Shown here: positions 16,256 through 55,666 of the stretch, piece by piece | How the letters are laid out: every line of letters begins with the position of its first letter | Position numbering within the stretch: the stretch's first letter is position 1 | Assembly: GCA_030649835.1 (NCBI GenBank) | Contig: JAUSES010000029.1 | Coordinates: forward strand, 4,130 to 68,129 | Reading direction: 5' to 3' | Length of the DNA stretch: 64,000 nucleotides | From: a bacterium | GTDB lineage: Bacteria > Patescibacteriota > Minisyncoccia > Phycocordibacterales > UBA1550 | Made by a program: the position numbers and the translations under genes | The notes under the pieces: model-generated | What the model was told of the DNA's origin: nothing | Databases searched by the model: none | What the model saw: the letters and a program-made list of their open reading frames with translations, nothing else

Positions 16256-16381
16256 CCCGTTAGAAGTAGGAAATTATTAAAAATTTCCGTAGTTAACTAA
16301 TAAATTGTCAGCCTAAATACATTTATCATAAATTCCCCCTAAACGCCACCCCTGAACCATATGACTTCTAACGGGATTCAT
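16253..16381. repeat. family-1 TIR element copy A (CATCCCGTTAGAAGT … ACTTCTAACGGGATTCAT), with an internal ggaaat…atttcc hairpin
   Basis: The left terminus CAT is the rsmE start codon. Copies also lie at 29577..29703, ~38914..39043 and 55077..55254. Confidence 0.7.
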
Positions 16382-16670: not shown

Positions 16671-16672
16671 AT

Positions 16673-16960: not shown

Positions 16961-17094
16961 AAATACAGTATACACCCGCAATCTTCCTTGTCAATACATT
17001 GTCACTACATCAAAATAGTCTATCAGGTCAGCGCAGAAAACAAAAACTCGGCCTGCCGTGAAGCAGACCGAGGTATTGAAAATGAATGCAAAAA

Positions 17095-17740: not shown

Positions 17741-18337
17741 ATGTCCTACTTAATCCCAACTGTTATTGAAAAGTCGCCACAAGGCGAACGTGCGTATGAT
17801 ATTTACTCGCGCCTACTCAAGGAGCGCATCATTTTCCTTTCGGGCGCTATTGATGATGACACGGCAAACATCACCATCGCTCAGCTTCTTTTTCTTGAAT
17901 CTGAAGATCCAAAAAAAGATATTTCTTTATACATCAACTCCCCCGGTGGCTCCGTGACTGCAGGAATGGCGCTCTACGACACCATGCAACACGTGAAGCC
18001 AGATGTTTCTACTATTTGTGTTGGAATGGCAGCATCAATGGGTGCAGTGCTTCTCTCTGCGGGCGCAAAGGGTAAGCGTTTCATACTTCCCAATGCTGAG
18101 GTAATGATTCACCAGCCACTCGGGGGCACCGAGGGGCAGGCGTCCGACATCGCCATCACTGCAAAACATATTTTGAAAATAAAGGAGAATTTGAATAAAA
18201 TACTTTCAAAAAACACCGGCAAGCCTCTCGCACAAATAGAAAAAGACACCGACCGCGACTTTTTCATGTCCGCCGAAGAGGCTAAAAAGTATGGCATCAT
18301 CGACGAGATTTACAAACCCAAGAATCCGCGAAGCTAG
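17741..18337 (+). CDS. clpP: ATP-dependent Clp protease proteolytic subunit
   Basis: [11 protein letters not shown] (Ser), MIHQP (His) and the Asp of the catalytic triad are present. Confidence 0.9.
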
Positions 18338-18403
18338 CCTGCAAAAAAACATCCCCCGCCTTTTTGAAAAAGGCGGGGGATGTTTTTTTGCAGGCTAGCT
18401 TCG
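18331..18403. terminator. long perfect palindrome acting as a bidirectional terminator between clpP (+) and the AAA ATPase gene (-)
   Basis: gaagctagcctgcaaaaaaacatcccccgcc tttttgaaaaa ggcgggggatgtttttttgcaggctagcttc. Confidence 0.6.
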
Positions 18404-23552: not shown

Positions 23553-23612
23553 GTTCAAAAAAAAGAAAACTCAGGCTTTTAAAAAGCCTGAGTTTTCTTT
23601 TTTTTTGAACCT
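23553..23612. terminator. bidirectional palindromic terminator between hup (+) and the methyltransferase gene (-)
   Basis: gttcaaaaaaaagaaaactcaggcttttt aa aaagcctgagttttctttttttttgaac. Confidence 0.6.
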
Positions 23613-27611: not shown

Positions 27612-29579
27612 TTATGAAATCGTCTTGTTTGCCAGCGAAACATCATTGTGTCCACTTCCGGCCCCAACGATGTTCACAGATTCTCCATTATTTGATACAT
27701 CCTCTTTTGGTATTAGCTCTGTAATGGTTGGTATCAATACGGTAAAAGCTGTTCCCTTGCCTTCAACAGTATCAACCCATATCTGCCCGCCGTGGCGCAC
27801 TACAATACTCTTTACAATAAAGAGTCCTAGTCCTGAACCATCTGTCTGCAAATGAATCACATTTGCAGCACGGAAAAACTTAGAAAATAGTTTTGGAAGG
27901 TCTGTTTTAGGAATACCTACACCCGTATCACTAATTTTTATCTCTATATAATCACCATGTTTACTAACTGAGATGGTGACCCTCCCCCTTGGGAACGTGT
28001 ACTTCATAGCATTATCAACAATGTTCTGGAGCGCTATGAGAAGTTTTTCTGGATCAAAAACAAAGTCAGGAATTGTGCCAGCATGATTTTCAAGCCGTAC
28101 CTCAATATTTCGTTCTTTTGAAGGAAGGACGGTGCTTTCCATAAGCATACTAAGAAGTCTCATAAAGTCATTTTTCCCAAAATCATACCCAAACTTACTA
28201 TTCTCTATACGTGAAACATTAAGTAAGTCATTAACGAGCTGGATCATTTTCTCGTTCGTTTCATACCCACGCCTTAACATACCTTTTTGGGTCTCAGAGA
28301 CTTCACCAAGATCTCCATCAAGTAACAGCTTAAGTACCCATTTCACTCCCGAAAGCGGTGTGCGTAGCTGATGTGCAGCCACAGAGATAAAATCTGATTT
28401 CAGTTTATCAAATTCTCTTAGGCTACCTACCATGGAGTTAAAAACATCTCCGAATTGCCCAATCTCATCGTTAGATGTATGCTCTACAGTTTGATTAAAA
28501 TCACCCCCCGCTATTTTTTTAGCAACCAAAGAGTATTTACGTATAGGACCAACGACCTCCGTTTCCAAAATAACAGCGAGTACAACAACGAGAATTACCG
28601 TAAACACTAAACCAATCCACAACATGCGAAGTTTAAGTTGGTTCACCCGAACCTTATAGACATCTTTAAATACCTGAATTTCGGTTAGTCCTGCTATTTG
28701 TTTTTTCCCGTCTGTTCCAACAAAAAATACTGGATTTAATCGCACAATAACATCTACGGTTTTCCCGTTTGGCGTTATGTATGTACGATCAATTTCAAAC
28801 GGGGCCTTTAGTTCGCCACTCATTACACCAAGACGAGCTTTTTTATACTCAGGAGGATCGTCCTTAGTTTCGTTTGGGTTGTTTTGAGTACTTGCTATAA
28901 TATTTAATTTTTCATCAAAAATGATAAAGTTATTAAAAAAATAGAAGTCTTTTACGCTATTTACAATTCGCTGAAGTACGTCAACACTAATTTTTCTAGT
29001 AACAATAAGTGAGCGCATATTTTGGTCAACAAATCTCGTAACAACCTGAAGAACCTTTTTCGCTTCTTCAATATCTGACAAATTTTTTGAGCGCGACGAG
29101 ACAGAAATATCAATAACATTTACCATTTCTGATGAAGTATCGTCGCCTTTAAAAAACACAGGAACATGTCTCTCAAATTCGTAAAAAGTCCCCCTGTCTT
29201 TTTCTGCACTTATTCCCACTCTTTCAACTTCTATCTTTTTCAAGATTTCCCTGTCCTCAAAACTAATCTCCTTTCCTATCAGCTCGTGGTCTTTTGCAGC
29301 AACATAGTATCCGCGCGCATCATTAACATTAATATATTTCAGCTCAGAGCCTGCTCCAATTTTATCTATTGTTGTTTGTAGAGTATCTTGCTGTATATAA
29401 TTTTGAATAAAGGTACGTTCTATCTGATCCCCCAAAATATTTATCACCCCTTGTGAGTCTTCTAAAACTTGCTGTCGTAGGTTTACCGAAACCATATCTA
29501 CGATAACCCAAAAAACTATCGCGAGAATAAACGTAGTTACCGTAACCAAAACAAGATTTACTTTTGTGCCAAGCTTCAT
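27612..29579 (-). CDS. sensor histidine kinase (N-terminal TM, extracytoplasmic domain, HAMP, HisKA, HATPase_c)
   Basis: H-box SVAAHQLRTPL and G-boxes DTGVGIP / GSGLGL. Confidence 0.85.
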   Translation of the reverse strand: MKLGTKVNLVLVTVTTFILAIVFWVIVDMVSVNLRQQVLEDSQGVINILGDQIERTFIQNYIQQDTLQTTIDKIGAGSELKYINVNDARGYYVAAKDHELIGKEISFEDREILKKIEVERVGISAEKDRGTFYEFERHVPVFFKGDDTSSEMVNVIDISVSSRSKNLSDIEEAKKVLQVVTRFVDQNMRSLIVTRKISVDVLQRIVNSVKDFYFFNNFIIFDEKLNIIASTQNNPNETKDDPPEYKKARLGVMSGELKAPFEIDRTYITPNGKTVDVIVRLNPVFFVGTDGKKQIAGLTEIQVFKDVYKVRVNQLKLRMLWIGLVFTVILVVVLAVILETEVVGPIRKYSLVAKKIAGGDFNQTVEHTSNDEIGQFGDVFNSMVGSLREFDKLKSDFISVAAHQLRTPLSGVKWVLKLLLDGDLGEVSETQKGMLRRGYETNEKMIQLVNDLLNVSRIENSKFGYDFGKNDFMRLLSMLMESTVLPSKERNIEVRLENHAGTIPDFVFDPEKLLIALQNIVDNAMKYTFPRGRVTISVSKHGDYIEIKISDTGVGIPKTDLPKLFSKFFRAANVIHLQTDGSGLGLFIVKSIVVRHGGQIWVDTVEGKGTAFTVLIPTITELIPKEDVSNNGESVNIVGAGSGHNDVSLANKTIS

Positions 29580-29703
29580 CCCGTTAGAGGTAGGAAACGC
29601 TGTGCGTTTCCGTAGTTATTTAATAAATAGTAATACATCAATGTTTTATTATTATAATCCCGCTCTCTCATTATACAAACCTGATGACCTCTAACGGGAT
29701 TCA
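29577..29703. repeat. family-1 TIR element copy B (CATCCCGTTAGAGGT … ACCTCTAACGGGATTCAT)
   Basis: The left terminus CAT is the histidine-kinase start codon. Internal hairpin ggaaacgctgtgcgtttcc. Confidence 0.7.
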
Positions 29704-32399: not shown

Positions 32400-32495
32400 C
32401 CCACGCAGACGTACTACCGATATACTACACCCCGACTAAAGCTTCAACCCCAAAGCAGACGTACTACCGATATATAACTGCATACAATATATCCT
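32400..32495. repeat. two additional partial copies of the tRNA-Pro 5' half (gcagacgtactaccgatata…) in tandem upstream of the tRNA
   Basis: Period ~45-49 bp with three copies including the tRNA itself. Confidence 0.55.
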
Positions 32496-32647
32496 GCGTT
32501 CGCTCGAAAATACAAACTCCATGTTTGTATTTTACTCACTCACTTGGATATACTACACCCCGTTACACGTGAAACGTAGGAGAATATTAGCACACAAGAG
32601 GCAAATTACGAAATTTGAACACTTGGAACCAGAACATGGGGTAGGTT

Positions 32648-33070
32648 TTACAAAACAAAATTTTCCAAAAACTTTACTTTCGCTGTGCGATTTTTGACAT
32701 CTATCTGCACAGTTATCGCATCAAATACCCACTCAATCTGGTCTTCTGGTCGTCTTTCATACAAATAAACCTGTGTCGTTCGCCTTAAACGCTTTAATTT
32801 ATAAGGGTGCAGATTGTCTTCTGCCCTATATTTATCCGTCCTACTGGAAATACATAGGTCCGACCTATGTGAAGTAGGTATGTTTTCACGTGTAACGCTT
32901 TTTACCTCAATAAAATGCAAAATTTTGCCTTTTTTAGCAATAATATCTATTTCCCCGCATTTTCTGAGAAAATTCTGCTCAATTATTGAAAAACCCTTAT
33001 TTTCTAAGTATTTTTGAGCAATATCCTCTCCTAAACGCCCAATTTTCTGCTTTTCCGTCTTTTCAGCCAT
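32648..33070 (-). CDS. YraN-family (UPF0102) endonuclease
   Basis: GEIDIIAKKGKILHFIEVKS is the YraN signature. Confidence 0.7.
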   Translation of the reverse strand: MAEKTEKQKIGRLGEDIAQKYLENKGFSIIEQNFLRKCGEIDIIAKKGKILHFIEVKSVTRENIPTSHRSDLCISSRTDKYRAEDNLHPYKLKRLRRTTQVYLYERRPEDQIEWVFDAITVQIDVKNRTAKVKFLENFVL

Positions 33071-33453
33071 TAAATATAGTGTAGCATCTTGAGCGTTTCC
33101 CGTGAAGCACGCATTTTACGCTTTTTTGATCCGCCAAGCCCCGTCCTTGGCAAGATTGCCAGGGACGGGGCTTGGCGGATTGCTGGCGTTTCCCGTGAAA
33201 CATCCAATTTTAGGACAATTTTAGAGATCAAAATAGACTATTTCACATGAAACCTATATTTATCAAGGTTTTATGGAAAAATATGGGTATTTTAGCACGT
33301 TTTAGGATCTAAAAAGACCGATTTTAATGTCCTTTATCAACAGTATCCACATGGTTATCCACAGTTTTGGGTCATTTTCCCCATATTTTCCGCCTCAAAC
33401 CGTTGACATGGTGTGTCGGCGTGGTGATTTTGAGAGCAAATGTCCTTTAAAAA

Positions 33454-34191
33454 ATGTGCGAATTTGTATTAAATTGTACTCCTGTGTTATACTTTATACG
33501 TATGCGTACAGACAAAGAGAAGGCGACACAGCTTCGTAGGTTTGGTAAAAGCTATCAGGAAATCGCAGGCGAGCTAGGAATCCCTAAAAGCACTTTATCA
33601 GCGTGGTTTGGCGCCTCTTTGTGGTCACAGAAAATAAAAGATGATCTGAATGTTGTTACACATAGAAAGCACACGATCCGCATAGAAGAGCTCAACAAGG
33701 TGCGTGGGGAACATCTTAGGAATCTTTATATTCAAGCACGACATGAGGCACTTGAGGATTTTGAAATTCTAAAATACCATCCAGCTTTTATTTCAGGTGT
33801 TATGCTCTATTGGGGCGAAGGGGACAAGGCTTCCCTTCACCGCGTATCGCTAACCAACACCGATCCAGCAATGATAAGAATATTCATGGGGTTCCTTAAA
33901 GATGTGTGTGGAGTTGAGGAAAAGAGAATTAAGGCCTGGCTCCTTTTATATCCAGATCTTCAAGAATCTGAGTGCAAAAAATATTGGAAAGAGGAGGCAC
34001 ATTTACAAAATGTAATCTTCAATAAAAGCATGGTAATAGACGGGAGGCATAAAACAAAACGTCTAGGGCATGGTGTTTGCACTGTTGGTGTTTCTAGTAG
34101 ATATTTTAAAGAAAAAATGTTATTGTGGATTTCGTTGTTCCCTGATATGCTTGCAAACAGGGAACTATATGGGAAAGATGCGGATATATGA
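33454..34191 (+). CDS. HTH-domain protein with a possible LAGLIDADG-like nuclease domain
   Basis: N-terminal HTH SYQEIAGELGIPKSTLSAWF. LYWGEGDKAS loosely resembles the LAGLIDGDG motif. The true start may be 33502. Confidence 0.4.
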   Translation: MCEFVLNCTPVLYFIRMRTDKEKATQLRRFGKSYQEIAGELGIPKSTLSAWFGASLWSQKIKDDLNVVTHRKHTIRIEELNKVRGEHLRNLYIQARHEALEDFEILKYHPAFISGVMLYWGEGDKASLHRVSLTNTDPAMIRIFMGFLKDVCGVEEKRIKAWLLLYPDLQESECKKYWKEEAHLQNVIFNKSMVIDGRHKTKRLGHGVCTVGVSSRYFKEKMLLWISLFPDMLANRELYGKDADI

Positions 34192-34256
34192 GTACATATA
34201 TCCGCGACATTCGTGAAAAGTGAATATTATGGGTATACTCACTTTGTCACTCATTT

Positions 34257-34327
34257 GCGGATATAATTTAGTGGTAGAATTCCTCGTTGCCAACGAGAGA
34301 GTGGGAGTTCGATTCTCCCTATCCGCA
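34257..34327 (+). tRNA. tRNA-Gly (anticodon GCC)
   Basis: Acceptor GCGGATA/TATCCGC, anticodon loop TTGCCAA, T-loop TTCGATT; terminator hairpin gccccgaaaggggc+T5 at 34337..34362. Confidence 0.85.
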
Positions 34328-34511
34328 CAATTAAAATTGCCCCGAAAGGGGCTTTTTAATTGTGCGGATAGAGCAAGCCTCCTGCTTGGCTTGCGTGGAG
34401 AATCGAAAGCCGGAATATATTTTTGTAATCAAAAATAATGAGGTGGGGTCGAGGGTACTTAGATTTTTGTGAGTAATGCGATACAAAAAGCTTAGTAACC
34501 CGTGACCGAAA

Positions 34512-34527
34512 GCCCTATCCGCACAAT
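34512..34527. repeat. direct repeat of the tRNA-Gly(GCC) 3' end (ccctatccgcacaat), ~195 bp distal to the tRNA
   Basis: Exact 15-nt repeat of 34318..34332. The intervening segment starts with tgcggatagag (tRNA 5'-like) and contains ggagaatcgaaagccgg, shared with the element next to tRNA-Gly(TCC). Confidence 0.55.
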
Positions 34528-34579
34528 AAATATAAAATAGTCAGCCTCTCTTGAGAGGCTGACTATTTTATATTTATTG

Positions 34580-34651
34580 TGCCCACGCCAGGATTCGAAC
34601 CTGGAATAACGGTTTCGAAGACCGTTGTGATATCCATTTCACTACGAGGGC
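34580..34651 (-). tRNA. tRNA-Arg (anticodon TCG)
   Basis: Acceptor with one T·T mismatch, anticodon loop CTTCGAA, T-loop TTCGAAT. Bidirectional terminator hairpin at 34541..34566. Confidence 0.7.
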
Positions 34652-34720
34652 GTACGAAGACTGTACCGCAAAAGTAGTCAAAAGGCAAAAAAAACGGTAT
34701 GCTTTCAATACTTATTAAAT

Positions 34721-36190
34721 ATGGAAATCAACTATCCAATTCCAAAAGAAGTTTCACGTGTAACAGAAACATTGCGAAACGCAGGTTTTGAGGCGTATTT
34801 GGTGGGTGGATGTGTGCGTGACATATTGCAGGGGATTAAGCCAAAGGATTGGGATGCCACAACAAACGCAACTCCCGAGCAAATCCAGGCACTTTTTGAG
34901 AATTCTTTTTATGAAAATGACTATGGCACAGTTGGAATTGTGAATGAAACAGAGGATGAAACACTGAATGTGGTGGAAGTTACTCCTTACCGCACAGAAG
35001 GTGCCTATACCGACAAACGCCGTCCAGACAGCGTTTCGTTTCACGGGAAACTAGATGATGATCTCACAAGACGGGACTTTACTATCAACGCCATTGCATT
35101 TGATGATTCTAAAGGACATCTAAAGGACATTAGCAACGGACTAAAGGACATTAAGGACAAAGTCTTAAGGACAGTGGGAAACCCTGAGGAACGTTTCAAT
35201 GAAGACGCTCTCCGCGTACTTCGTGCAGTACGTCTTGCCACAGATCTTGGTTTCACGATTGAGTCAGAAACACAAAATGCCATTGTTAAGAAAGCGGGGG
35301 ATTTGAAGCATATTTCTATGGAGCGTATTCGTGATGAATTTTCCAAGATGATTATGACAAAGAATCCTATGGTCGGCATTGTGATATGCCAGAAGCTTGG
35401 GCTACTCAAATACATTGCGCCTGATCTTGAGCGGGGGATTGGGGTAGAACAAAACGGCGACCATATTTACACCGTGTGGGAGCACAACCTTCGCGCCCTT
35501 CAGCATGCAGCCGACCGCGACTGGCCACTTCACGTGCGCCTCGGTGCGCTCTTTCATGATGTTTCAAAACCAGAGACTCGCAGATGGTCAGATGAAAAAA
35601 ATAACTGGACATTTTATGGACACGATGTGGTGGGTGGGCGTGTTACAGAAAAAGCTCTTGAGCGTTTGAAATATCCTAAAAAAATTGTGGAGGTAGTTAC
35701 ACTCCTCGTAAGGCACCATTTGTTTTTCTCCGACATAGAAAAGATTACGCTTTCTGCCGCACGTCGCATTGTAAAAAATGTTGGCCCCGACAACGTATGG
35801 GACTTGATGAAGGTGCGCGCCTGCGACCGTATCGGCATGGGTCGCCCAAAAGAAGCGCCGTATCGTTTGCGTAAGTATGAATCAATGATTGAAGAGGCGA
35901 TGCGCGCTCCGGTATCTGTAGGAATGCTCAAGATTGACGGTGTAAAAATTATGGAAGTTACTCGTGAAACACCTGGACCAAAACTTGGATTCATCCTCCA
36001 CGCACTCCTCGAGGAAGTTCTCGACGACCCAGAGCGCAACACTGAAGAGTACCTCGTGAAACGCACTCTCGACCTCGCAAAGCTCCCCATTGATGAACTA
36101 AAAAAACTCGGCGAAGAAGGGAAGGGGAAAAAGGATGAGGCCGAACAAGGAGAACTCGCGGTAATCCGAAAGCGACACGGGGTAAATTAA
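34721..36190 (+). CDS. cca: CCA-adding tRNA nucleotidyltransferase with HD domain
   Basis: Pol-beta nucleotidyltransferase motif (GGCVRD…WDATT), RRDFTINAIA, and HD motif (HNLRALQH…LFHDVSKP). Confidence 0.8.
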   Translation: MEINYPIPKEVSRVTETLRNAGFEAYLVGGCVRDILQGIKPKDWDATTNATPEQIQALFENSFYENDYGTVGIVNETEDETLNVVEVTPYRTEGAYTDKRRPDSVSFHGKLDDDLTRRDFTINAIAFDDSKGHLKDISNGLKDIKDKVLRTVGNPEERFNEDALRVLRAVRLATDLGFTIESETQNAIVKKAGDLKHISMERIRDEFSKMIMTKNPMVGIVICQKLGLLKYIAPDLERGIGVEQNGDHIYTVWEHNLRALQHAADRDWPLHVRLGALFHDVSKPETRRWSDEKNNWTFYGHDVVGGRVTEKALERLKYPKKIVEVVTLLVRHHLFFSDIEKITLSAARRIVKNVGPDNVWDLMKVRACDRIGMGRPKEAPYRLRKYESMIEEAMRAPVSVGMLKIDGVKIMEVTRETPGPKLGFILHALLEEVLDDPERNTEEYLVKRTLDLAKLPIDELKKLGEEGKGKKDEAEQGELAVIRKRHGVN

Positions 36191-36226
36191 AAAATCCAAG
36201 GATGAACCTTGGATTTTAAATTTTGA

Positions 36227-36556
36227 TTACTCCGACACCATCTTTTTAGGTTCATATTTCACAACGGGCAAATGCGCGTTTTCAGGTCGTCTAAAAAACT
36301 CTGGAAAGCGTTCGTCTTTAAATCCGTGAACGGCAAAATACCGATTGGTTCCTGTCATCCACACTAGGTGAATATAATGTTTAGGTGTTGCATTTTCACT
36401 ACCATAGAAAGGGTCAGGGCCAGTCTCACAATTTCCTAAGGTTTGATAAGAACCAAGCGGCAAGTCCCATGAGCGAAGCTCCTTTCGCTCCTTAAAGCCA
36501 ACATCCCTTTCTCTATTCATCTTTTCTGCTTGTTCTTTTCCCGTCAACAAAATCAT
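36227..36556 (-). CDS. hypothetical protein (109 aa)
   Basis: ORF. It is preceded by the shared leader motif (family 3). Confidence 0.4.
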   Translation of the reverse strand: MILLTGKEQAEKMNRERDVGFKERKELRSWDLPLGSYQTLGNCETGPDPFYGSENATPKHYIHLVWMTGTNRYFAVHGFKDERFPEFFRRPENAHLPVVKYEPKKMVSE

Positions 36557-36620
36557 TATAATCTCCTTCTCGATACCGTCGAGAATGTCGGTTGGGCGGT
36601 TGCCCGCTTCAATGAACGGC

Positions 36621-37004
36621 CTAATGTCCCCGGAAGAACATTACTGCTAGTTTTTCGTATTCCGGATCTTCGGGGTAAATTACTTTAATCGAATAAGCTC
36701 CGGGAGAACTGGTAACTGAACCATAAGCATCATCGGAAGCGGAATGCATTCTTACGGAGTGACCATCTCGCTCGGCCACAACCGTGTAAACTCGCCCGCC
36801 CGCTTCTGTGAGACAAGTGTAACCCCTCCCTACAGTTTTGCATTTCTTTACTATCAGCTTGAACGATTCTGGGGCCGCCATCGCTTCTGAACGATTTTTT
36901 TGAGAGATCGACTCGCTCGCTGCCGAAATTATCACAAAAAATAAGAGGAACAAGAGAATAAGCACGAACACCACTCCAACGGATCCTTTTTGTTTACTAA
37001 TCAT
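36621..37004 (-). CDS. membrane-anchored hypothetical protein
   Basis: Start MISKQKG. N-terminal TM helix, preceded by the family-3 leader. Confidence 0.45.
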   Translation of the reverse strand: MISKQKGSVGVVFVLILLFLLFFVIISAASESISQKNRSEAMAAPESFKLIVKKCKTVGRGYTCLTEAGGRVYTVVAERDGHSVRMHSASDDAYGSVTSSPGAYSIKVIYPEDPEYEKLAVMFFRGH

Positions 37005-37059
37005 TTTGACACTCCTCAACCCAGGAACACGCCTGGAATCGTTGGGCGACTACCCGTTG

Positions 37060-37650
37060 TTACTGTTTGCACGCACAACCTTCATATTCTTGACGAATTC
37101 TCGTTACTAAGAAACAACAAGGGAGAAAAATTACGAGCCATATCAAGCCAACAATTATTCCTCTCTCGTGGGATCCTGGATTGCTATCACTTGGCAGAAA
37201 CATGGAAAGAAAAATTGCCATAGCGAATGTAAGTACGACCAGGATTACTCTTGTCATTTTTCTACTCGAAAAATAATACTGATCAACAATCTTACTTGGG
37301 TATTTATCCCTTTTTTTCACTTCGTCTTCACTGTTTGCTGGCACCATCCACCCAGAGTGAAATCCTTCAGTAGTACTACCGCTAGGCGTATCCGCTCTAA
37401 CGACTACATGTTGTCCGAGCCCAAGCGGGTCTACTCTTTCTCTATTCCACAGATCTCCTGGATTAACGTCGAATGTTTTTATTACTTCAATGCGTGCTGA
37501 ACCAAATTTCAATAAATTCTCATTTTGATTCATATACTTCTTTGAGCCGCTCCATTTCCGAAAAACAACTATGTCCCCTTTATTGAATTGATAACCAATT
37601 AGGAGCTTGTCGCAAAAAAGCAACATAAACCAACGCATCAACTGTTCCAT
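37060..37650 (-). CDS. hypothetical protein with C-terminal TM helices
   Basis: Start MEQLMRWF with GAGGAG 7 nt upstream, preceded by the family-3 leader. Confidence 0.45.
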   Translation of the reverse strand: MEQLMRWFMLLFCDKLLIGYQFNKGDIVVFRKWSGSKKYMNQNENLLKFGSARIEVIKTFDVNPGDLWNRERVDPLGLGQHVVVRADTPSGSTTEGFHSGWMVPANSEDEVKKRDKYPSKIVDQYYFSSRKMTRVILVVLTFAMAIFLSMFLPSDSNPGSHERGIIVGLIWLVIFLPCCFLVTRIRQEYEGCACKQ

Positions 37651-37879
37651 TTTATTCTCCTCAATCCAGGAACGCGCCTGGAATCGTTGGGCGACTGCCC
37701 GTTTCAATGAACTTCCTATTAGGAGTATAGACTATTGCCATAAATAATGTTGAAATAATAATATTTTTGACGAATTGTCCGTACTTAATGCTACTAAACC
37801 TTATAAAATAAGAATATTATAATTGTTCTTTAACAATGAAACAATTGACATAAATGTTGTCATTTTGTATTATTTAAAC

Positions 37880-38641
37880 ATGAAAACACTTACACACAAG
37901 CTTGAGCGACTCGGGCTATCAGAAAAAGAATCAGCAACCTATTTAACGCTCTTGGAGGCGGCCTTTGGCTTGTCTATCGCCATAATTTCTAAAAAAACCT
38001 CTATAAAAAGAAGTACGGTATATCTCACCCTAGAGTCCCTCAAAAAACGTGGTCTCGTCAGCATGACAAAAAATCGTAACCGTCATGTGTATGTAGCCGA
38101 AGACCCAAGAATCTTTGACCAAAAAATAAAAGAGCAGGGGGTATACCTTCAAGAAATTCTCCCTGAACTTCTTTCTATAACGAATGTCCTTGCGAGAAAA
38201 CCACAAATTAGATTTTTTGAAGGTATTGAAGGTATCAAGGAAGTCTATAGAGATACGCTGCAACAACCAAAGGGGAGCGAGATACTCGCGTGGGCAACGG
38301 ATGACTTTGACGAGAAGTTTGACCCATTGTGGTTGACAGAGAAATATGTACCGTCACGAGTCGGCGCAAAAATACATTCTCGCGTCTTGGCGCCAAATAC
38401 GTCATATCTTAAAGACTTAGCGGGAGATAATGTTGCCGCACTTCGCAAAATTAGATTACTGCCACCTGAAGAAGCTACCTTTACAGTGGAAGTAAATCTA
38501 TACAATAAAAGGAAGGTCGCACTGGTTGCACCCAGCGAACAATTCGGTATCATCATTGAAAGCCAATCGGTATTTGAAACACTGAAAGCGATATTTGAAA
38601 ATGCGTGGAAAAATTCAAGTGACTCAAAGATTTTAAACTAG
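37880..38641 (+). CDS. TrmB-family transcriptional regulator
   Basis: N-terminal wHTH LGLSEKESATYLTLLEA…IAIISKKTSIKRSTVYLTLESLKKRGLV. Confidence 0.65.
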   Translation: MKTLTHKLERLGLSEKESATYLTLLEAAFGLSIAIISKKTSIKRSTVYLTLESLKKRGLVSMTKNRNRHVYVAEDPRIFDQKIKEQGVYLQEILPELLSITNVLARKPQIRFFEGIEGIKEVYRDTLQQPKGSEILAWATDDFDEKFDPLWLTEKYVPSRVGAKIHSRVLAPNTSYLKDLAGDNVAALRKIRLLPPEEATFTVEVNLYNKRKVALVAPSEQFGIIIESQSVFETLKAIFENAWKNSSDSKILN

Positions 38642-38660
38642 CACATTCAACTAATACTAC

Positions 38661-38790
38661 TTAATCTCTAGCGTGATCGGGCAGTGGTCCGAACCATAGA
38701 AATCGCTCATGATTGATGCCTGTTTCACGCGGGGGAGGAGGTCGGGGGAAATGAAAAAGTAGTCAATGCGCCAGCCGATAATATCTACTT
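38661..38790 (-). pseudogene. truncated duplicate of the 3' end of xth (~42 codons, ~85% identical to 40164..40290)
   Basis: Minus-strand translation is …IIGWRIDYFFISPDLLPRVKQASIMSDFYGSDHCPITLEIK*, compared with the Xth C-terminus …VGWRIDYFFISPDLLPHVKQATIMTDFLGSDHCPITLVM*. Confidence 0.75.
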
Positions 38791-38795
38791 TTTTT

Positions 38796-38847
38796 CCTAA
38801 CTATCTACTTATAAAATACTATCGTATTTTATAAGTAGATAGTTAGG
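38796..38847. repeat. 52-bp near-perfect palindrome (cctaactatctacttataaaatac tatcg tattttataagtagatagttagg) at the junction of the xth fragment and the toxin-antitoxin cassette
   Basis: Seen directly in the sequence. Confidence 0.7.
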
Positions 38848-38913
38848 GAGCATAACAATTACTTCGAAAAACTCGCTTGCAAACAAGTTAATCTTAAGAT
38901 AAACTTACGGTAT

Positions 38914-39043
38914 ATGAATCCCGTTAGAGGTCGCTCAGTTTATTAAACAGCACCTGCGGGACTTTATGATAAAAGGTTAGATTTATTTACTATGCGATAA
39001 TTAACTACGGAAATGCATGGCATTTCCTACCTCTAACGGGATG
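38914..39043. repeat. family-1 TIR element copy C in inverse orientation (ATGAATCCCGTTAGAGGT … TTTCCTACCTCTAACGGGATG)
   Basis: The right terminus ATG is the start codon of the Phd-like antitoxin. Coordinates are ±2 nt. Confidence 0.65.
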
Positions 39044-39292
39044 AAAACAGCTACCAAAAACATTGTGGGGCTCAAGGAATTGCGAGAAAATATGGACTCG
39101 TATATTTCTGGTGTTCAAAAAGGTAAGTCTTTTATTGTGGTTCGACGTTCAGAGCCAATTTTTCGCCTTTCTCCTGTTGATATTTGGGGAGACGAGGGCG
39201 TGTGGGAAACTGCTGTCGATTTCACCAAAATAAAAAAGGGAGGTGTGCCACTTGCTGATGTAATTGCTTCACTTAAGCGCCGCAATGCATAA
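39041..39292 (+). CDS. type II antitoxin, Phd/YefM-like
   Basis: IVGLKELRENMDSYISGVQKGKSFIVVRRSEPIFRL. Overlaps the toxin start as ATGCATAA. Confidence 0.6.
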   Translation: MKTATKNIVGLKELRENMDSYISGVQKGKSFIVVRRSEPIFRLSPVDIWGDEGVWETAVDFTKIKKGGVPLADVIASLKRRNA

Positions 39293-39527
39293 GATAGACA
39301 AGTTCCTTGCAAAACTGGATGCAGAGCGGCGGGAAAAGGTCCTTGCCATTCTTTTGCGAATACAATCCGAGAATTTTGAAAATCTCGATATCAAAAAACT
39401 AAAAGGGTTCACCCAAATCTATCGCGTGCGTGTTGGTCAATGCCGTATCAAATTTGAAACAGTGCAGAGTAGCATCAACATTATTAATATTGAATTTAAA
39501 GGGGATAATACTTACAAAAACAGCTGA
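39285..39527 (+). CDS. type II toxin, RelE/ParE family
   Basis: LKGFTQIYRVRVGQCRIKFE…INIINIEFKGDNTY. Confidence 0.6.
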   Translation: MHKIDKFLAKLDAERREKVLAILLRIQSENFENLDIKKLKGFTQIYRVRVGQCRIKFETVQSSINIINIEFKGDNTYKNS

Positions 39528-39778
39528 TAAACCTTATGGTCTCCTACTGCCAAAAGCGCCACTTCATTTTCAGACATGTATTCAAAAACGATACGATTTT
39601 TGTAGTCAACAGAAAAACCATAAAACTTTTTCAGTCTTCCCTTTAACTTGTGTACTTCTAACCGCTGATGATTATTTACATCTTTAAACAAGTCAATCTT
39701 TTCAATTACATCATCCTGTAAACCCACTGGCAACTTCTTAAAGAGTCTCAAGAATCTAGGCGTGTATGCAACTTTCAT
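39512..39778 (-). CDS. type II toxin, RelE/ParE family
   Basis: HKLKGRLKKFYGFSVDYKNRIVFEY…ALLAVGDHKVY. Confidence 0.65.
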   Translation of the reverse strand: MKVAYTPRFLRLFKKLPVGLQDDVIEKIDLFKDVNNHQRLEVHKLKGRLKKFYGFSVDYKNRIVFEYMSENEVALLAVGDHKVYQLFL

Positions 39779-39780
39779 AA

Positions 39781-39999
39781 TTAGATTCTTTTCGCAAGTT
39801 CGCGCAAATCCCCACGCAATATTTTGCCATCTCTTACTTCTTGCGATGCCTCAAGGACAGCTCGCACTGCCTCATCTTCAGAAAAACGAGTGAGGGCGCG
39901 ACGAACGACATCTGCCTTGTTGGCTGCGTTACCGCTTTTTACTTGGTTGTTTATGAATTTCTCCAGTTCAGGAGATAGTGGGACGGATAGTGTGGACAT
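39781..39999 (-). CDS. type II antitoxin, ParD/CopG (RHH) family
   Basis: LSVPLSPELEKFINNQVKSGNAANKADVVRRAL. AT-rich inverted repeats tgatat/atatca upstream (40000..40050) are a candidate operator. Confidence 0.65.
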   Translation of the reverse strand: MSTLSVPLSPELEKFINNQVKSGNAANKADVVRRALTRFSEDEAVRAVLEASQEVRDGKILRGDLRELAKRI

Positions 40000-40068
40000 A
40001 TGATATATATTTAATGATATGATATTATCATACTAAATTATCATATAATTTTCAAGTCTTCTTCGAGC

Positions 40069-40118
40069 CTCACCCACCATACATTCCAAGTCATGACTTG
40101 GAATGTATGGTGGGTGGG
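40069..40118. repeat. 48-bp perfect palindrome (cacccaccatacattccaagtcatgacttggaatgtatggtgggtg) between the ParD promoter region and the xth stop
   Basis: Seen directly in the sequence. Confidence 0.7.
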
Positions 40119-40163
40119 TGACTTTAACTCCTATCTCAATTCAAACACAATAGGGCAGTGGCC

Positions 40164-40928
40164 CTACATCACTAGCGTGATTGGGCAGTGGTCGGAGCCG
40201 AGGAAGTCGGTCATGATGGTGGCTTGTTTCACGTGGGGGAGGAGGTCGGGGGAGATGAAGAAATAGTCAATGCGCCAGCCGACGTTGCGCGCGCGGGCGC
40301 CGGTTTTCATATCCCAGTACGTGTATGCATCTTTTTTGTTTGGATTGAGGTGCCGATAAATATCTACATAGCCATGGTAAATGAGCTCATCTATCCATGC
40401 GCGCTCCTCGGGGAGGAAGCCGGTGTTCTTTTCATTTTCTTTTGGGCGGGCGAGGTCCACTGCCTCATGCGCGGTATTCACATCTCCGCAAATAATAATC
40501 TTGTGCCCTTTTTTGCGGAGGCTCTCGGTAAATTCCAAAAAATGATCGTAAAAATCGAGTTTATATTTAAGTCGCACGGGTCCACCACCACCATTGGGGA
40601 AGTAACAATTCAAAAGGACAAAGTCTTGAAAGTAAAGGACAAGGAGTCTCCCTTCTTGATCCATGTCCCTTATCCCCATTCCTTCTTCTACTTTTTCTGG
40701 CTTCACTTTTGTATACACCGCGACCCCGCTGTAGCCCTTGCGCATCTTTGAATGTGAAAAATATGAAAAATAGCCTTTTGGATTGCGCACTTCTTCGGGA
40801 AGTTGCTCTGCCTCTACTTTTGTTTCCTGTAGACACAAAATATCCGCATCCCTTTTTATAATATCGGCAAAATTCCCCTTCTTGTGTATCGCGCGCAATC
40901 CATTTACGTTCCAGGATATAAGTTTCAT
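40164..40928 (-). CDS. xth: exodeoxyribonuclease III
   Basis: AP-endonuclease family sequence (…SWNVNGLRA…LCLQETK…DHCPITL). Confidence 0.9.
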   Translation of the reverse strand: MKLISWNVNGLRAIHKKGNFADIIKRDADILCLQETKVEAEQLPEEVRNPKGYFSYFSHSKMRKGYSGVAVYTKVKPEKVEEGMGIRDMDQEGRLLVLYFQDFVLLNCYFPNGGGGPVRLKYKLDFYDHFLEFTESLRKKGHKIIICGDVNTAHEAVDLARPKENEKNTGFLPEERAWIDELIYHGYVDIYRHLNPNKKDAYTYWDMKTGARARNVGWRIDYFFISPDLLPHVKQATIMTDFLGSDHCPITLVM

Positions 40929-41019
40929 ATTGAATCAATAATAACACATCCGACCATTGTACATTTTATGAATAGGTACTAAGCTTATGTTGTATCAGTT
41001 TACAGAGAGGAGGTGTTTC

Positions 41020-41301
41020 ATGAGTACATTCACTACCAACAAAGAGGATCAAGAATATCGAATAGTTAGACAAGAGATCCAAGCACTGCAGGAAAGTATT
41101 GTGCGTCAACGGGCAGAAATTATTGCACTAATCACAAAACTTGAACTTATTCGCACCAGAAAAGTATTTTCATTGAAAGAACAAGTCGAGAAAAGTGAGC
41201 AAGCGAAGTTAGCCGAGCGGCAACTCAATGAATCACGTCGCTCCCTCAATCGCTCCGAAGCACGAGTCTTGGAACTGGCACAATTGATTGGCATCGATTA
41301 G
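41020..41301 (+). CDS. small coiled-coil protein
   Basis: ORF 40987..41301, probable start MSTFTTNKED. Confidence 0.4.
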   Translation: MSTFTTNKEDQEYRIVRQEIQALQESIVRQRAEIIALITKLELIRTRKVFSLKEQVEKSEQAKLAERQLNESRRSLNRSEARVLELAQLIGID

Positions 41302-41331
41302 CGCGTCATGAAACATTTCGTGGCGCGTTTT

Positions 41332-42261
41332 TTATTTATTGTGAAATTTTTTGTGCACATCTCTCAACTGGTTGTCGGTGATGTGGGTGTAGATTTGGGT
41401 GGTGGAAATGTTGGCGTGGCCGAGCATCATTTGGACAGAGCGAATGTCTGCGCCATTTTGGAGAAGGTCGGTGGCGAAGCTATGGCGCAAAATGTGCGGA
41501 GTAACTTTATCCATTATTCCCGCCTTGGTAGCATAAAACTTTACCATGCGCTCAATGGAGCGGGGAGTGAGGCGCGTGGAGCCATCTTCGCGGGTGCGTT
41601 TTGTTTCACTAACAAAAAGCGCATCGTCCATGTCAGTTCTTTTTTTCAAATATGCGGTGATGGCTTTTTTTGCATCATCGGAAATAAATACCACACGTAC
41701 TTTTTCACCTTTTCCTCGTACAGATATTTCGTCACGCGTGAGGTCGATGTCGCGCTGTAGTGCACACAATTCTGAAAGGCGAAGCCCTGTGGAGAAAAAT
41801 AATTCCAAAATCGCTTTGTCACGGAGCTCCTTGATACTTTCGCCGCTGGGCGCATCAAGAAGGCGACGCAGGTCAACCGGTTTCAAAAGGTCAATCGTGC
41901 GCTCGGCTACTTTTGCAAGTTCAATTTTTTCTGGCGCGTACGACTCCACACCGCGCTTTCGCAAATACTTTAAAAAACTCCGCAAAGCAATGAGATAATA
42001 ATTTTGCGTTTTCTTTTTGAGTGTTTCCGCGCGCCCCTCGTGTACTCCGGCGCTTTGGCGGTTGAGCCACAAGCGAAACGTACGCATCATCTCGTCGGTG
42101 ATGTCGCTTGGCACTGAAGCACCACTTGCTACCAAAAATCGGGTGAGGTAACGCTCGTAATTTTCAATTGTATTCAAACTTCTCCCACGTTCTATTTCCA
42201 AATACTCTAAATATTGACGGGCATATTTACCAAGCGGGGTTTGGGGGATATTGTGCGACAT
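41332..42261 (-). CDS. tyrosine site-specific recombinase, XerC/XerD family
   Basis: RHSFATDLL, LGHANISTTQIYTH and the catalytic Tyr. The probable start is MSHNIP at 42261; the ORF-track N-terminal extension to 42516 runs through a repeat element. Confidence 0.8.
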   Translation of the reverse strand: MSHNIPQTPLGKYARQYLEYLEIERGRSLNTIENYERYLTRFLVASGASVPSDITDEMMRTFRLWLNRQSAGVHEGRAETLKKKTQNYYLIALRSFLKYLRKRGVESYAPEKIELAKVAERTIDLLKPVDLRRLLDAPSGESIKELRDKAILELFFSTGLRLSELCALQRDIDLTRDEISVRGKGEKVRVVFISDDAKKAITAYLKKRTDMDDALFVSETKRTREDGSTRLTPRSIERMVKFYATKAGIMDKVTPHILRHSFATDLLQNGADIRSVQMMLGHANISTTQIYTHITDNQLRDVHKKFHNK

Positions 42262-42414
42262 GAGTACAGTATACAACTGACGACTCACAACTACCAACCA
42301 ACTGACTGACTGGCGCATTTGGCCTTCGGCCAAATGCGCTTTAACGTGCGTTTTTGTAGACCACACACCCCCAGTATCTAGCCAGGAAATTGCATCCTTC
42401 GAATCGTCTTTTGA

Positions 42415-42520
42415 ATTAGCAAATTCACGTCTTGGACGCAGACTCTCAGTAGACACTCCTGGGAAGCAATCCAGTGAGTTGGTACTTAATCCTGGATTGC
42501 TTCGCCTTGCTCGCAAAGAC
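42415..42520. repeat. family-2 element (partial copy): …attcacgtcttggacgca…cctggattgcttcg…ctcgcaaagac
   Basis: Homologous to 57650..57765 and 60225..60330. Confidence 0.6.
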
Positions 42521-44329: not shown

Positions 44330-44445
44330 TTTGGGACAGGAAGAACCGAGAGACAAGTGAACGCCCAATCGCTACGCGATTGGGCGTTCACTTGTCTCTA
44401 TTCCTTGTTCCCACCCGTCCCAAACGTTCCCCCTGTCCACGCGTA
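44330..44445. repeat. family-T palindromic element copy 2 (gggacagg…agagacaagtgaacgcccaatcgctacgcgattgggcgttcacttgtctct…gtcccaaacgttcc…cctgtcc)
   Basis: Hairpin with a GCTACGCG apex; likely terminator of the transporter gene. Confidence 0.6.
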
Positions 44446-55076: not shown

Positions 55077-55254
55077 ATGAATCCCGTTAGAGATGAAAGC
55101 GTTATGTTTTTGTCACCAATAGGATATACTGAAGCTATTACTATTAACAGATTGATATAATAAGGATACGGAAACTTGTCCCGTTAGAAGCCGCGAGAGA
55201 ATCGCAACGCTGAGTTGCTTCTAACGGGATAAATTTCCTATCTCTAACGGGATG
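55077..55254. repeat. family-1 TIR element copy D (ATGAATCCCGTTAGAGAT … TTTCCTATCTCTAACGGGATG) with a nested inner copy of the arms (cccgttagaag…cttctaacggg)
   Basis: The right terminus ATG (55252) is the start codon of the downstream gene. Confidence 0.7.
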
Positions 55255-55584: not shown

Positions 55585-55666
55585 AGTCAGCACAAAAAAG
55601 AAACAGATGCCTCGCCAAAACTTTGGCGAGGCATCTGTTTCTTTTTTGTGCTAAAGTAGCTACACC

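Follow-up and report, generated by a model that had tools for sequence, protein, structure and literature searches.

A duplicated xth 3' end beside two toxin-antitoxin pairs as a probable recombination scar in a Patescibacterium

The stretch between a TrmB-family regulator gene and the exodeoxyribonuclease III gene xth in an uncultivated Patescibacterium is probably the scar of a single-crossover or one-sided homologous recombination with the DNA of a relative, which would have spliced two gene layouts together. It was analysed within a window of 64,000 nucleotides, the whole stretch of DNA available to us here, and its features are listed in Table 1. A preliminary description had read the region as the footprint of an inserted toxin-antitoxin (TA) cassette; a DNA-joining event at the xth 3' end stands, while a discrete mobile TA cassette does not, because the same block is scar-free in the relative L097. 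We regard the locus as an ordinary scar at a gene-exchange hotspot and not as a new mobile cassette. Related loci are given as L followed by a number.

Table 1. Features of the xth region (window positions).
Feature	Position	Strand	Details
CCA-adding enzyme gene	34721..36190	+	Pfam PolyA_pol/HD; far border of the variable xth-CCA gap
TrmB-family regulator, "new" type	37880..38641	+	PF01978, E = 3e-13
xth' fragment (copy A)	38657..38783	-	85% identical to copy B
Non-homologous junction	38784..38795		TrmB/xth' block to PAL1-Phd block; xth homology ends at 38783
PAL1	38796..38847		52-nt perfect hairpin (24+4+24)
Phd-RelE promoter/operator	38877..38913	+	TTGCAA-17-TAAACT, operator AAGTTAATCTTAAGATAAACTT; read from sequence
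Family-1 element C	38919-39041	+	123-nt MITE-like insert; 13-nt terminal inverted repeats TCCCGTTAGAGGT
Phd/YefM-like antitoxin	39041..39292	+	83 aa; PF02604 E = 0.008 (16 bits, below curated cut-off of 29.8); TIGR01552 E = 0.0014 (17.9 bits, below curated cut-off of 20.8)
RelE-type toxin	39285..39527	+	80 aa; profile match to RelE3 structure 3bpq
RelE/HigB-like toxin	39512..39778	-	88 aa; PF05015 E = 2.5e-4; TIGR02385 E = 2.9e-4, both below cut-offs
ParD-like (ribbon-helix-helix) antitoxin	39781..39999	-	72 aa; TIGR02606 E = 6.7e-10 (38.9 bits, below cut-off of 46.2); PF03693 E = 0.007; ParD structure 3kxe E = 0.013
ParD-HigB promoter, AT-rich	40000..40055	-	TTGAAA-17-TATGAT and inverted-repeat operator TATGATA-A-TATCATA
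PAL2	40071..40116		46-nt perfect hairpin (23+23)
Small terminator-like hairpin	40150..40167	-	TAGGGC-CACT-GCCCTA with T-rich tail; overlaps xth stop codon
Copy B, 3' end of intact xth	40164..40287	-	
xth (exodeoxyribonuclease III), intact	40164..40928	-	254 aa; PF03372 E = 1e-34
Xer-type tyrosine recombinase	41332..42270	-	TIGR02224/TIGR02225 E ~1e-72

The xth terminus and its neighbourhood in relatives

When the two copies of the xth terminus were aligned, as the preliminary description had suggested, positions 38664-38778 and 40168-40282 matched without gaps over 115 nt, 98 of them identical (85.2%; self-BLAST E = 1e-30), a significant similarity that bears out the reported duplication. This repeat, the sole gene-fragment repeat in that part of the window, includes two identical 19-nt runs and brackets a 1.5-kb stretch with two type II TA operons. 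Copy A holds the final ~41 codons and the stop of an xth allele, with no start codon. Its minus-strand translation is the Xth C-terminus IGWRIDYFFISPDLLPRVKQASIMSDFYGSDHCPITLEIK followed by a stop, and it is thus still translatable as an Xth C-terminal fragment, as had been claimed. The reading frame contains neither frameshift nor internal stop, and its own stop codon (38657-38659) lies one codon beyond the stop position of xth and 15 nt from the TrmB stop. It appears to be a pseudogene piece of a foreign or displaced xth allele.

The differences between the copies follow codon structure: 12 are synonymous and 9 non-synonymous (synonymous excess P = 5e-4; dN/dS = 0.15, dS = 0.70), and eight of the ten changes specific to copy A fall in third codon positions (P = 0.003). 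Copy A has kept an ancestral Arg and the usual ending LE[IL]K-stop, and copy B is derived at both. Since the differences are mostly at synonymous sites, the fragment would come from another lineage's working xth; comparison of the sequences thus indicates alleles of different lineages, and the simple duplication of the xth end allowed for in the preliminary description is not sustained.

The order Xer > xth > gap < CCA-adding enzyme is conserved among relatives, with the CCA-adding enzyme gene convergent with xth in nearly all of them. The gap spans 27-113 nt in L005, L007, L010 and L011, and ~9-10 nt separate the two stop codons in the empty gap of L010 and L011. Its gene content differs in L002, L003, L004, L006, L008, L009, L012, L013, L029 and L125. 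These loci show the xth-CCA gap to be a gene-exchange hotspot, often holding type II TA pairs, in Yonathbacteria-like Patescibacteria. Next to xth, the ParD-HigB pair occurs alone in L004, L006 and L009 and the Phd-RelE pair alone in L003 and L089-L096. Both pairs stand in the window's order in L097-L099, where nucleotide homology runs unbroken from Phd across xth as far as Xer (75-78%). The xth-ParD-HigB-RelE-Phd block of L097, which belongs to another species, is contiguous with xth and contains no xth fragment, no PAL1 or PAL2 and no family-1 element; a discrete cassette with its own ends, as first proposed, does not agree with this joining of the same block to xth.

The TrmB side has a different distribution. 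The window protein is only 26-27% identical to the TrmB-like gene at the same place in L097 and L006, and its close homologues are found in L119 (89%) and in L120 and L122 (76%). An xth 3' remnant of ~27-36 nt abuts the same TrmB type in the more distant relatives L120 and L122, with a score reached by 0 of 2000 and 7 of 2000 shuffles, respectively, which suggests that the adjacency of this TrmB and xth is old. In L119, the relative nearest to the window in the TrmB block, the place of an xth fragment is taken by the 3' remnant of a TrmB-like gene of the L097 type. Truncated TrmB-like remnants occur in L003 and L089, and in L008 a 5' fragment of a foreign-type xth lies ~1 kb upstream of the resident gene. 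The empty site that had been expected, an intact xth directly abutting this TrmB, was not found in the available relatives.

L120 has another TA pair, unlike those of the window, between its xth remnant and an intact xth. Remnants of the xth end thus stand next to TA genes in two lineages, the window and L120, an observation that a dedicated mechanism might explain as well.

Toxin-antitoxin pairs, palindromes and element C

Only four ORFs lie between the xth copies, all of them TA genes, and they agree with the Phd/RelE-type pair and the convergent ParD/ParE-type pair with AT-rich operator repeats of the preliminary description. In the Phd-RelE pair the antitoxin comes first and the RelE start overlaps the Phd stop by 8 nt; the Phd-like orthologues in relatives (88-91% identical) are also located beside RelE. 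A family profile of the RelE-type toxin, based on 25 homologues, matched RelE3 (3bpq, E = 1.4e-7) and aRelE (1wmi, E = 0.011), and PF05016 is present in distant members of the family. The RelE/HigB-like toxin had no PDB sequence match. The promoter/operator of Phd-RelE is kept in L003, L089, L093 and L097, and the ParD-HigB promoter is kept in L004, L006, L009 and L097 up to ~40049-40055. The palindromic AAGTTAATCTTAAGATAAACTT is an operator-like sequence, with autoregulation and toxin neutralisation both putative. Only 8 nt lie between this operator region and the original Phd ATG at 38914, and the ancestral Phd-RelE mRNA was probably leaderless.

Both long perfect palindromes of the preliminary description are real, with the correction that PAL2 measures 46 and not 48 nt. 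PAL1 lies 155 nt beyond TrmB and PAL2 48 nt downstream of the xth stop. Both have unique sequences and belong to a genome-wide class of long perfect hairpins; 18 of these were counted in the window, the majority within ~55 nt of a gene 3' end. At the position equivalent to PAL1, L003 has a different 46-nt perfect palindrome and L089 has none; the site corresponding to PAL2 lacks it in L097, L004 and L006. Membership of this mostly post-gene class and the lack of PAL2 in those three relatives argue against the palindromes as cassette ends. No clear T-run was seen at PAL1 or PAL2; PAL1, which precedes the Phd promoter, is a probable terminator or insulator. The small terminator-like hairpin at the xth stop also occurs in L097.

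Element C is flanked by TGAA repeats (38915-38918 and 39042-39045), and its last A together with the following TG rebuilds the Phd ATG. Three further family-1 copies are present in the window. Flanking duplications of TGAA or TAGA accompany six of seven copies, and all long copies are placed precisely at an ATGAA start codon, share one orientation and rebuild the ATG. Empty sites exist in relatives both at the Phd site (L003, L089, L093, L097) and at the Xer site. Family-1 thus has the terminal inverted repeats, target duplication, multiple copies and empty sites of a MITE family, and no transposase-encoding autonomous partner was found in the window and ~1 Mb of related loci, a small part of those genomes. 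Element C, which had been counted as part of the cassette, is, as the empty sites show, a separate and apparently later insertion on the Phd start codon.

Family-1 resembles bacterial MITEs such as Correia elements and Rickettsia palindromic elements (PMC3184786) in its short length (51-171 nt), terminal inverted repeats and short flanking duplications, in its multiple copies with filled and empty sites in relatives, and in one in-frame copy within a coding region (L012). Unlike them, its long copies occur only on ATGAA start codons, in a single orientation and with the ATG rebuilt; a limited literature search retrieved no described element with this target preference. Family-1 may, tentatively, be a mobile family targeting the first codon (A|TGAA) of near-leaderless genes, that is, a start-codon-homing regulatory insertion. 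If so, insertion would turn a leaderless mRNA into one with a ~125-nt structured leader. This leader would hold the new AUG sequestered in a 14-bp terminal stem and would also carry a conserved hairpin, an internal -10-like box and a short upstream ORF beginning MNPV(R/K). As the most unusual by-product of the analysis, the start-codon-associated family-1 merits separate study.

Alternative origins of the repeat

A tandem duplication arising in place at the xth end, through slippage or unequal crossing-over in this genome, followed by insertion of the TA genes and neutral decay of the spare copy, would agree with the 85% identity of copies A and B, as the xth ends of the sampled relatives reach at most 83% with copy A. 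We consider it very unlikely, however, given the mostly synonymous divergence and third-position bias in a frame free of frameshifts and internal stops, and given the ancestral states that copy A keeps and copy B does not; moreover, a dS of 0.70 equals a species-level divergence, and over that span a fragment free of selection should have lost its open frame and codon structure. Still less credible is an assembly chimera joining contigs of two co-occurring related strains. The sample series does contain related organisms (L121 comes from a sister run), and in an independent assembly of run SRR13727527 two contigs, matching 32407-40100 and 40087-42437, both end at the centre of PAL2. Nevertheless, these contigs match with 0 mismatches, whereby the TrmB/xth-fragment/PAL1/Phd junction, 38784-38795 included, is reproduced in an independent (Logan) contig and is no assembler-specific artefact; there is no shared repeat at this junction to lead an assembler astray, and the join across PAL2 fits the synteny in L097, L004 and L006.

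Integrative islands and prophages can insert in a gene 3' end and supply a replacement end. The window is alike in that the gene has remained whole and that, beyond the insert, there is a displaced and diverged second copy of its 3' end; it is unlike them in that the insert has neither an integrase nor a conserved att core, L097 is scar-free, and the junctions vary by lineage. We judge it unlikely that the 1.5-kb TA unit is an integrative element with an att site overlapping the xth 3' end, carrying a replacement xth end and moved in trans, e.g. by Xer in the style of IMEX or dif modules. Gene-end direct repeats do flank the unit and share the two 19-nt runs, a XerC/D-like recombinase gene is available 1 kb away, L120 also has its own TA pair in such a position, and Xer-moved TA modules are known in Acinetobacter (PMC6449649, PMC13141974). 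Those Xer-dependent dif modules and IMEX are likewise small and integrase-less, are often TA pairs and gather near the site of Xer action. The window modules, in contrast, have no 28-bp pdif/dif-like sites, the hairpins are unique perfect palindromes and not conserved XerC/XerD binding sites, and the empty gaps of L010 and L011 leave no room for a 28-bp site. No dif-like XerC/XerD site (11-6-11) was detected at the module borders, and the two unit boundaries share no repeat except the xth sequence. There is no recombinase inside the unit, and the Xer gene, which the preliminary description had noted ~1 kb away, lies next to xth in essentially all relatives irrespective of gap content, empty gaps included; comparison of these loci marks it as a conserved housekeeping neighbour. 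An identity of 85% over 115 nt with codon-structured divergence is unlike a recently recombined att core, and scar positions and lengths vary (L119, L120, L003, L089, L008). No independent occurrence with the same junction or core was found: L097 has no repeat, L120 has its short xth remnant and L119 its TrmB-like one. A role of the xth 3' end as a dedicated site for the capture of integrase-less TA modules is improbable.

Chromosomal integrons are cassette arrays that include TA cassettes. The window is similar in that small TA operons accumulate and hairpin-forming sequences lie between genes. An integron cassette was rejected, as the recombinase scores as XerC/D and reaches 122 bits with the integron-integrase model against a cut-off of 265; the palindromes, perfect, unique, following ordinary genes genome-wide and having no RYYYAAC...GTTRRRY core arrangement, were likewise rejected as attC sites.

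Proposed recombination and its significance

A recombination scar with a relative's DNA thus remains the preferred reading. The insert is flanked by a partial duplicate of the homologous anchor and has one non-homologous junction, and the two anchor copies derive, by their dN/dS of 0.15 and third-position bias, from different lineages. One parental layout would have been CCA - small genes - TrmB (new type) > < xth, in which TrmB and xth converge directly, and the other xth > ParD > HigB > < RelE < Phd. The second is seen uninterrupted in L097, and the first would be represented by the L120 and L122 remnants, no intact example having been found. The splice would have relied on homology at one end, in xth or in a neighbouring conserved gene, and on a non-homologous join at the second end (38784-38795), either by a Campbell-type single crossover of a circularised fragment or by homology-facilitated illegitimate recombination (HFIR) of imported linear DNA. 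By either route, a 125-nt xth 3' end of the other lineage would be left dead beside TrmB as copy A, with copy B kept in the intact xth. The family-1 insertion at the Phd ATG and both long hairpins of terminator type would have arisen later or independently. This scheme assumes natural transformation or uptake of foreign DNA by the organism, and uptake, like the route, is deduced; as to direction, either the TA block would have entered a TrmB-xth genome or the TrmB block a TA-xth genome, and GC3, identity by segment and comparison of the C-termini favoured neither. No genome among those available has the exact pre-event state, i.e. an intact xth abutting this TrmB or the same species with no fragment (the closest public Xth proteins are 87-88% identical), and the event is consequently reconstructed, not observed.

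In experiments, 109-950 bp of the homologous anchor became duplicated when re-circularised fragments integrated by a single crossover, and HFIR gave one homologous and one illegitimate end (PMC3240628). The window is alike in its partial anchor duplication flanking the insert (~125 nt), in its one homologous and one non-homologous junction, and in the placement of foreign genes next to a conserved gene. It differs in that the process is deduced from comparative sequence, that the anchors differ by ~15% between donor and recipient, and that the host is an uncultivated Patescibacterium in which DNA uptake and recombination are putative.

A duplicated gene end together with palindromes need not mean a mobile cassette; here the palindromes belong to a generic hairpin class and the recombinase is a housekeeping protein. 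The dN/dS of a pseudogene fragment offers a simple way to separate imported alleles from local duplications, and gene-end fragments may persist as datable scars. The conserved xth, Xer and CCA-adding enzyme genes would act as homology anchors around a slot that turns over between species, and the locus would thus provide a sequence-level example of accessory-gene exchange in the small genomes of uncultivated Patescibacteria.

The repeated xth terminus and its source

Comparison of the window with itself recovered the 3' end of the intact xth gene (copy B) and a fragment of the same end beside the TrmB gene (copy A), and no other gene-fragment repeat nearby. The two align over 115 nt without gaps at 85.2% identity (38664-38778 against 40168-40282, E = 1e-30) and bound a unit of 1504 bp. 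This is the duplicated terminus reported in the preliminary description, which was also right that copy A can be read as an Xth C-terminal fragment and that two long perfect palindromes (PAL1 and PAL2) and two toxin-antitoxin (TA) pairs, Phd/RelE-like on the plus strand and ParD/HigB-like on the minus strand, lie between the copies. The xth homology of copy A, of which GGCAGTGGTCCGAACCATAGAAATCGCTCATGATTGATGCC is a copy-specific stretch, breaks off abruptly at 38783.

Features of the xth region and repeats discussed in the text
Feature	Coordinates	Strand	Remarks
Copy A	stop at 38657-38659	minus	reads as IGWRIDYFFISPDLLPRVKQASIMSDFYGSDHCPITLEIK and its own stop; no start codon, hence a gene fragment
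Intact xth	40164-40928	minus	PF03372, E = 1e-34; its 3' end is copy B
Phd-like antitoxin	39041-39292	plus	profile matches below curated cut-offs
RelE-like toxin	39285-39527	plus	overlaps the Phd-like gene by 8 nt; family profile matches RelE3 structure 3bpq, E = 1.4e-7
RelE/HigB-like toxin	39512-39778	minus	matches of ~3e-4, below cut-offs
ParD-like antitoxin	39781-39999	minus	TIGR02606, E = 6.7e-10
ParD promoter			TTGAAA-17-TATGAT; carries inverted repeat TATGATA-A-TATCATA
PAL1	38796-38847		perfect, 24+4+24 nt
PAL2	40071-40116		perfect, 23+23 nt; 48 nt past xth
Further palindromes (examples)	18329-18403, 55589-55652, 34521-34582, 23557-23605, 44349-44399		37-nt arms in the first
Family-1, long copies	16255-16376, 29579-29699	minus
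Family-1, long copies	38919-39041 (copy C), 55082-55252 (copy D)	plus
Family-1, variant nested in copy D	55179-55229		51 nt
Family-1 in relative L005	4948-5065		at xer start codon
Family-1 in relative L012	5013-5080		68-nt variant
YafQ-type TA pair	16392-16981	minus	toxin PF15738, E = 4e-27, and upstream small ORF
Leader copies	36591-36623, 36996-37058, 37641-37718		before minus-strand genes
Leader copy in relative L119	921-985
Three-copy repeat	454-800, 1798-2144, 3609-3927		~320-370 nt, 79-87% identical
Additional repeat, same area	1345-1580, 2209-2444

Of the substitutions between the copies, 12 are synonymous and 9 non-synonymous (dS = 0.70, dN/dS = 0.15), a significant synonymous excess (P = 5e-4). 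When the changes were polarised with eight relatives, third codon positions accounted for 8 of the 10 specific to copy A (P = 0.003). Copy A also keeps an arginine common to all eight relatives and the usual ...LE[IL]K ending before the stop, and copy B is derived at both. The synonymous excess, the third-position bias and the ancestral states together argue that copy A evolved within a working xth of another lineage and that its reduction to a fragment is recent. This all but excludes duplication in place followed by decay. The stop codon of copy A lies 15 nt from the convergent TrmB stop, as tight as in normal convergent pairs here; judging by this spacing, xth in the source genome probably faced a TrmB of the window's type directly.

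The gap between xth and the CCA-adding enzyme gene in relatives

The nearest genomes belong to the Patescibacteria, Paceibacteria / Candidatus Yonathbacteria group and conserve the order Xer > xth > gap < CCA-adding enzyme. The gap is only 27-113 nt in four of the related loci (L005, L007, L010 and L011), with about ten bases between the xth and CCA-adding enzyme stop codons in the last two; differing genes occupy it in ten others (L002, L003, L004, L006, L008, L009, L012, L013, L029 and L125). The gap is a hotspot with TA genes often among its tenants. ParD-HigB occurs without Phd-RelE in L004 and L006, where it immediately follows xth, and in L009, where it is 1 kb off, and Phd-RelE occurs without ParD-HigB, convergent on xth with assorted small genes in between, in L003 and L089-L096. 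No available relative showed the empty site expected earlier, with an intact xth immediately next to this TrmB. Nor did a metagenome scan with the TrmB protein reveal such a state or another TrmB next to xth, the best relatives there having 43% identity or less. Closer Xth relatives reach a maximum of 88% identity, and the gaps of the two best matches hold other genes and do not show the state before the event.

The order of the window, TrmB-like > Phd > RelE > < HigB < ParD < xth < Xer, is matched by L097-L099, of which one is an ENA contig of 145 kb and two are shorter. Between the Phd start codon and the ParD promoter (window 39041-40049) nucleotide homology is unbroken at 75%; it restarts 28 nt below the xth stop and continues through xth (76%), and Xer is 78% identical. 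Locus comparison showed that L097 lacks the xth fragment, PAL1, PAL2 and the MITE-like family-1 element, and has 54 nt separating its TrmB-like gene from Phd. Since the block occurs there free of scars, the double-TA block attached to xth is a layout existing in the clade, and the repeats and palindromes of the window do not define it as a unit. Of the insertion footprint described earlier, a DNA-joining event at the xth end is supported and a discrete cassette is not.

Within single relatives, the identity of xth to the window diverges strongly from that of the flanking genes: Xth, Xer and CCA-adding enzyme are 71%, 83% and 82% identical in L010, and 81%, 71% and 86% in L009. These uneven values indicate that recombination around xth has probably been frequent throughout the clade.

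TrmB in the window shares only 26-27% identity with the TrmB-like gene at the same place in L097 and L006, whose two copies are 88% identical to each other. Homologues 76% identical to the window's TrmB occur in L120/L121 and L122-L124, where the TrmB stop is abutted by a short xth 3' remnant, identical to the L120 xth end at 21/27 positions in L120 and 28/36 in L122; these scores were reached by 7 and 0 of 2000 shuffles, respectively. A different TA pair (91 + 79 aa) separates remnant and intact xth in L120, and both xth and Xer are missing in L122. The order in L122-L124 is TrmB, xth remnant (~36 nt of the xth end left), 91-aa gene and NYN gene; the ribosomal protein S15 gene, xth and Xer lie between TrmB and NYN in L120 and are absent from the contig in L122-L124. 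This suggests that xth and the single Xer gene may both have been deleted at the locus in the L122-L124 lineage. The TrmB of L119 is 89% identical to that of the window, and L119 also matches on the CCA side; in place of the xth piece, its TrmB is followed by ~95 nt left over from the 3' end of the TrmB-like gene of L097 type. Shortened pieces of the latter gene lie upstream of Phd in L003 and L089. A 9-10-nt match between the right arm of PAL1 (TAAGTAGAT) and the TrmB-like stop region of L003 was set aside as too short. In L008, 76 nt of an xth 5' end lie ~1 kb upstream of the resident xth, to which they are 75% identical, and their protein sequence is nearer to the window's Xth; this foreign-type fragment (MKLISWNVNGLRAIHKK..., 4935-5010 against 6001-6076 in the resident gene, with unrelated ORFs between) mirrors the 3' scar of the window. 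Gene-end remnants, varied in kind, length and position, are thus common around the xth locus.

Family-1 elements, palindromes and other repeats

Family-1 copy C, previously counted as part of the cassette, is a separate insert. The Phd promoter (TTGCAA-17-TAAACT) and the operator-like AAGTTAATCTTAAGATAAACTT are conserved in L003, L089, L093 and L097, where they run directly into ATGAAAAC... and so present the empty site. The window reads ATGAA, TCCCGTTAGAGGT ... ACCTCTAACGGGA, TGAAAAC at this site. The insert is 123 nt long, has 13-nt terminal inverted repeats (TCCCGTTAGAGGT; family ends TCCCGTTAGAGG) and is flanked by a TGAA duplication; the last A of the element rebuilds the Phd ATG. L004 and L008 likewise have an empty site at xer, as against the filled site of L005. 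All four long window copies and the L005 copy occupy an ATGAA start codon with the ATG rebuilt and in the same orientation relative to the gene. The start codon lies 8-9 nt after a -10-like hexamer in the four window copies and 16 nt after it in L005. The downstream genes (RsmE, histidine kinase, DUF5663, Phd and Xer) are unrelated. Because the window holds 793 TGAA sites and only about 14 ORFs starting with ATGAA, this placement is far from chance.

The family interior contains a -10-like TATGAT/TATAAT box of its own and an upstream ORF starting MNPV(R/K). The predicted RNA fold has a 14-bp terminal stem and a conserved hairpin (z = -3 to -6) with compensatory changes (GGAAAT/ATTTCC, GGAAAC/GTTTCC, GGGAAT/ATTCCC). 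The L012 variant lies in frame at xer codons 5-6 and adds 72 nt (24 codons); the variant nested in the hairpin loop of copy D has the same terminal repeats, as does that of L012. IS200/IS605-style insertion, with no duplication and a left-flank target, was rejected on the TAGA repeat present on both sides of the L012 copy in place of TGAA; this different flanking repeat favours a true target duplication. No Rfam family matched, and no autonomous partner was seen in the window or in ~1 Mb of related loci. Nineteen viral-contig matches to the terminal repeat were judged to be chance, being without a paired repeat and mostly in one conserved phage gene. Copy C has no connection with the xth event and stands out as the region's most unusual feature.

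The two palindromes had also been assigned to the cassette. They belong to a window-wide class of 18 perfect palindromes (arms 12-37 nt), each unique in sequence, and none arose in twenty shuffles of the window. Most lie within ~55 nt of a gene 3' end or between convergent genes, and the three-base loops of several are closed by GC (GCTTCGC, GCTACGC). Their occurrence varies even among closely related species: PAL2 is absent from the orthologous position in L097, L004 and L006, and at the PAL1 position L003 has a different 46-nt perfect palindrome and L089 none. They are best read as putative terminator or insulator hairpins of the host genome; neither PAL1 nor PAL2 has a clear T-run. Their perfection makes a templated origin, rather than gradual selection, possible. 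Rfam searches at gathering and permissive thresholds returned only tRNAs, plus meaningless miRNA-precursor matches on palindromes.

Elsewhere in the window, the YafQ-type TA pair sits directly upstream of family-1 copy A (not the xth fragment). A conserved ~60-80-nt leader precedes three adjacent small minus-strand genes (109, 127 and 196 aa). Within it are the hairpins GGGCAGTCGCCC and CCAGGCG(C/T)GTTCCTGG, followed by GAGGAG and ATG; it may act as a cis-regulatory RNA or as a common promoter/leader. The three-copy repeat near the window start probably represents paralogous genes or a repeat family.

Probable origin of the scar

The simplest account is that a layout of the type [CCA ... TrmB(new) > < xth] was joined to one of the type [xth > ParD > HigB > < RelE < Phd], with homology used on one side and a non-homologous junction (38784-38795) formed on the other. 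In E. coli, re-circularised fragments lacking part of the anchor gave anchor duplications of 109-950 bp by single crossover, and homology-facilitated illegitimate recombination joins one homologous and one illegitimate end, with insertion usually coupled to deletion (PMC3240628). Both routes would yield the structure of the window. The imported side is not told by GC3 along xth (0.84-0.86 in copy B, ~0.73 in copy A by hand count), segment-wise identity to relatives, C-terminal peptides or comparison with L097; the peptide of copy A is slightly closer to the consensus of the nearest Xth proteins, a weak hint that it may be the resident xth end.

An assembly chimera is an unlikely origin for the arrangement. 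In an independent assembly of run SRR13727527, two contigs agree with window positions 32407-40100 and 40087-42437 at 0 mismatches; the TrmB, xth fragment, PAL1 and Phd junction is therefore not peculiar to one assembler. Both contigs end at the centre of PAL2, as a perfect palindrome would predict. A site-specific element using xth as its attachment site keeps some weight because xth-end remnants beside TA genes recur in the window and L120, but it is improbable: the unit contains no recombinase, the Xer gene that the preliminary description noted ~1 kb away neighbours xth whatever the gap holds, there is no dif-like site (nor room for one in the empty gaps), and the junctions are not reproduced from lineage to lineage. 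A dif/IMEX reading was ruled out for lack of sites, and an integron on both integrase and attC structure. The xth feature is best read as a scar left by recombination at a hotspot rich in TA genes. It adds one more case to a known type of event and is mainly relevant to the genome dynamics of uncultivated Patescibacteria.
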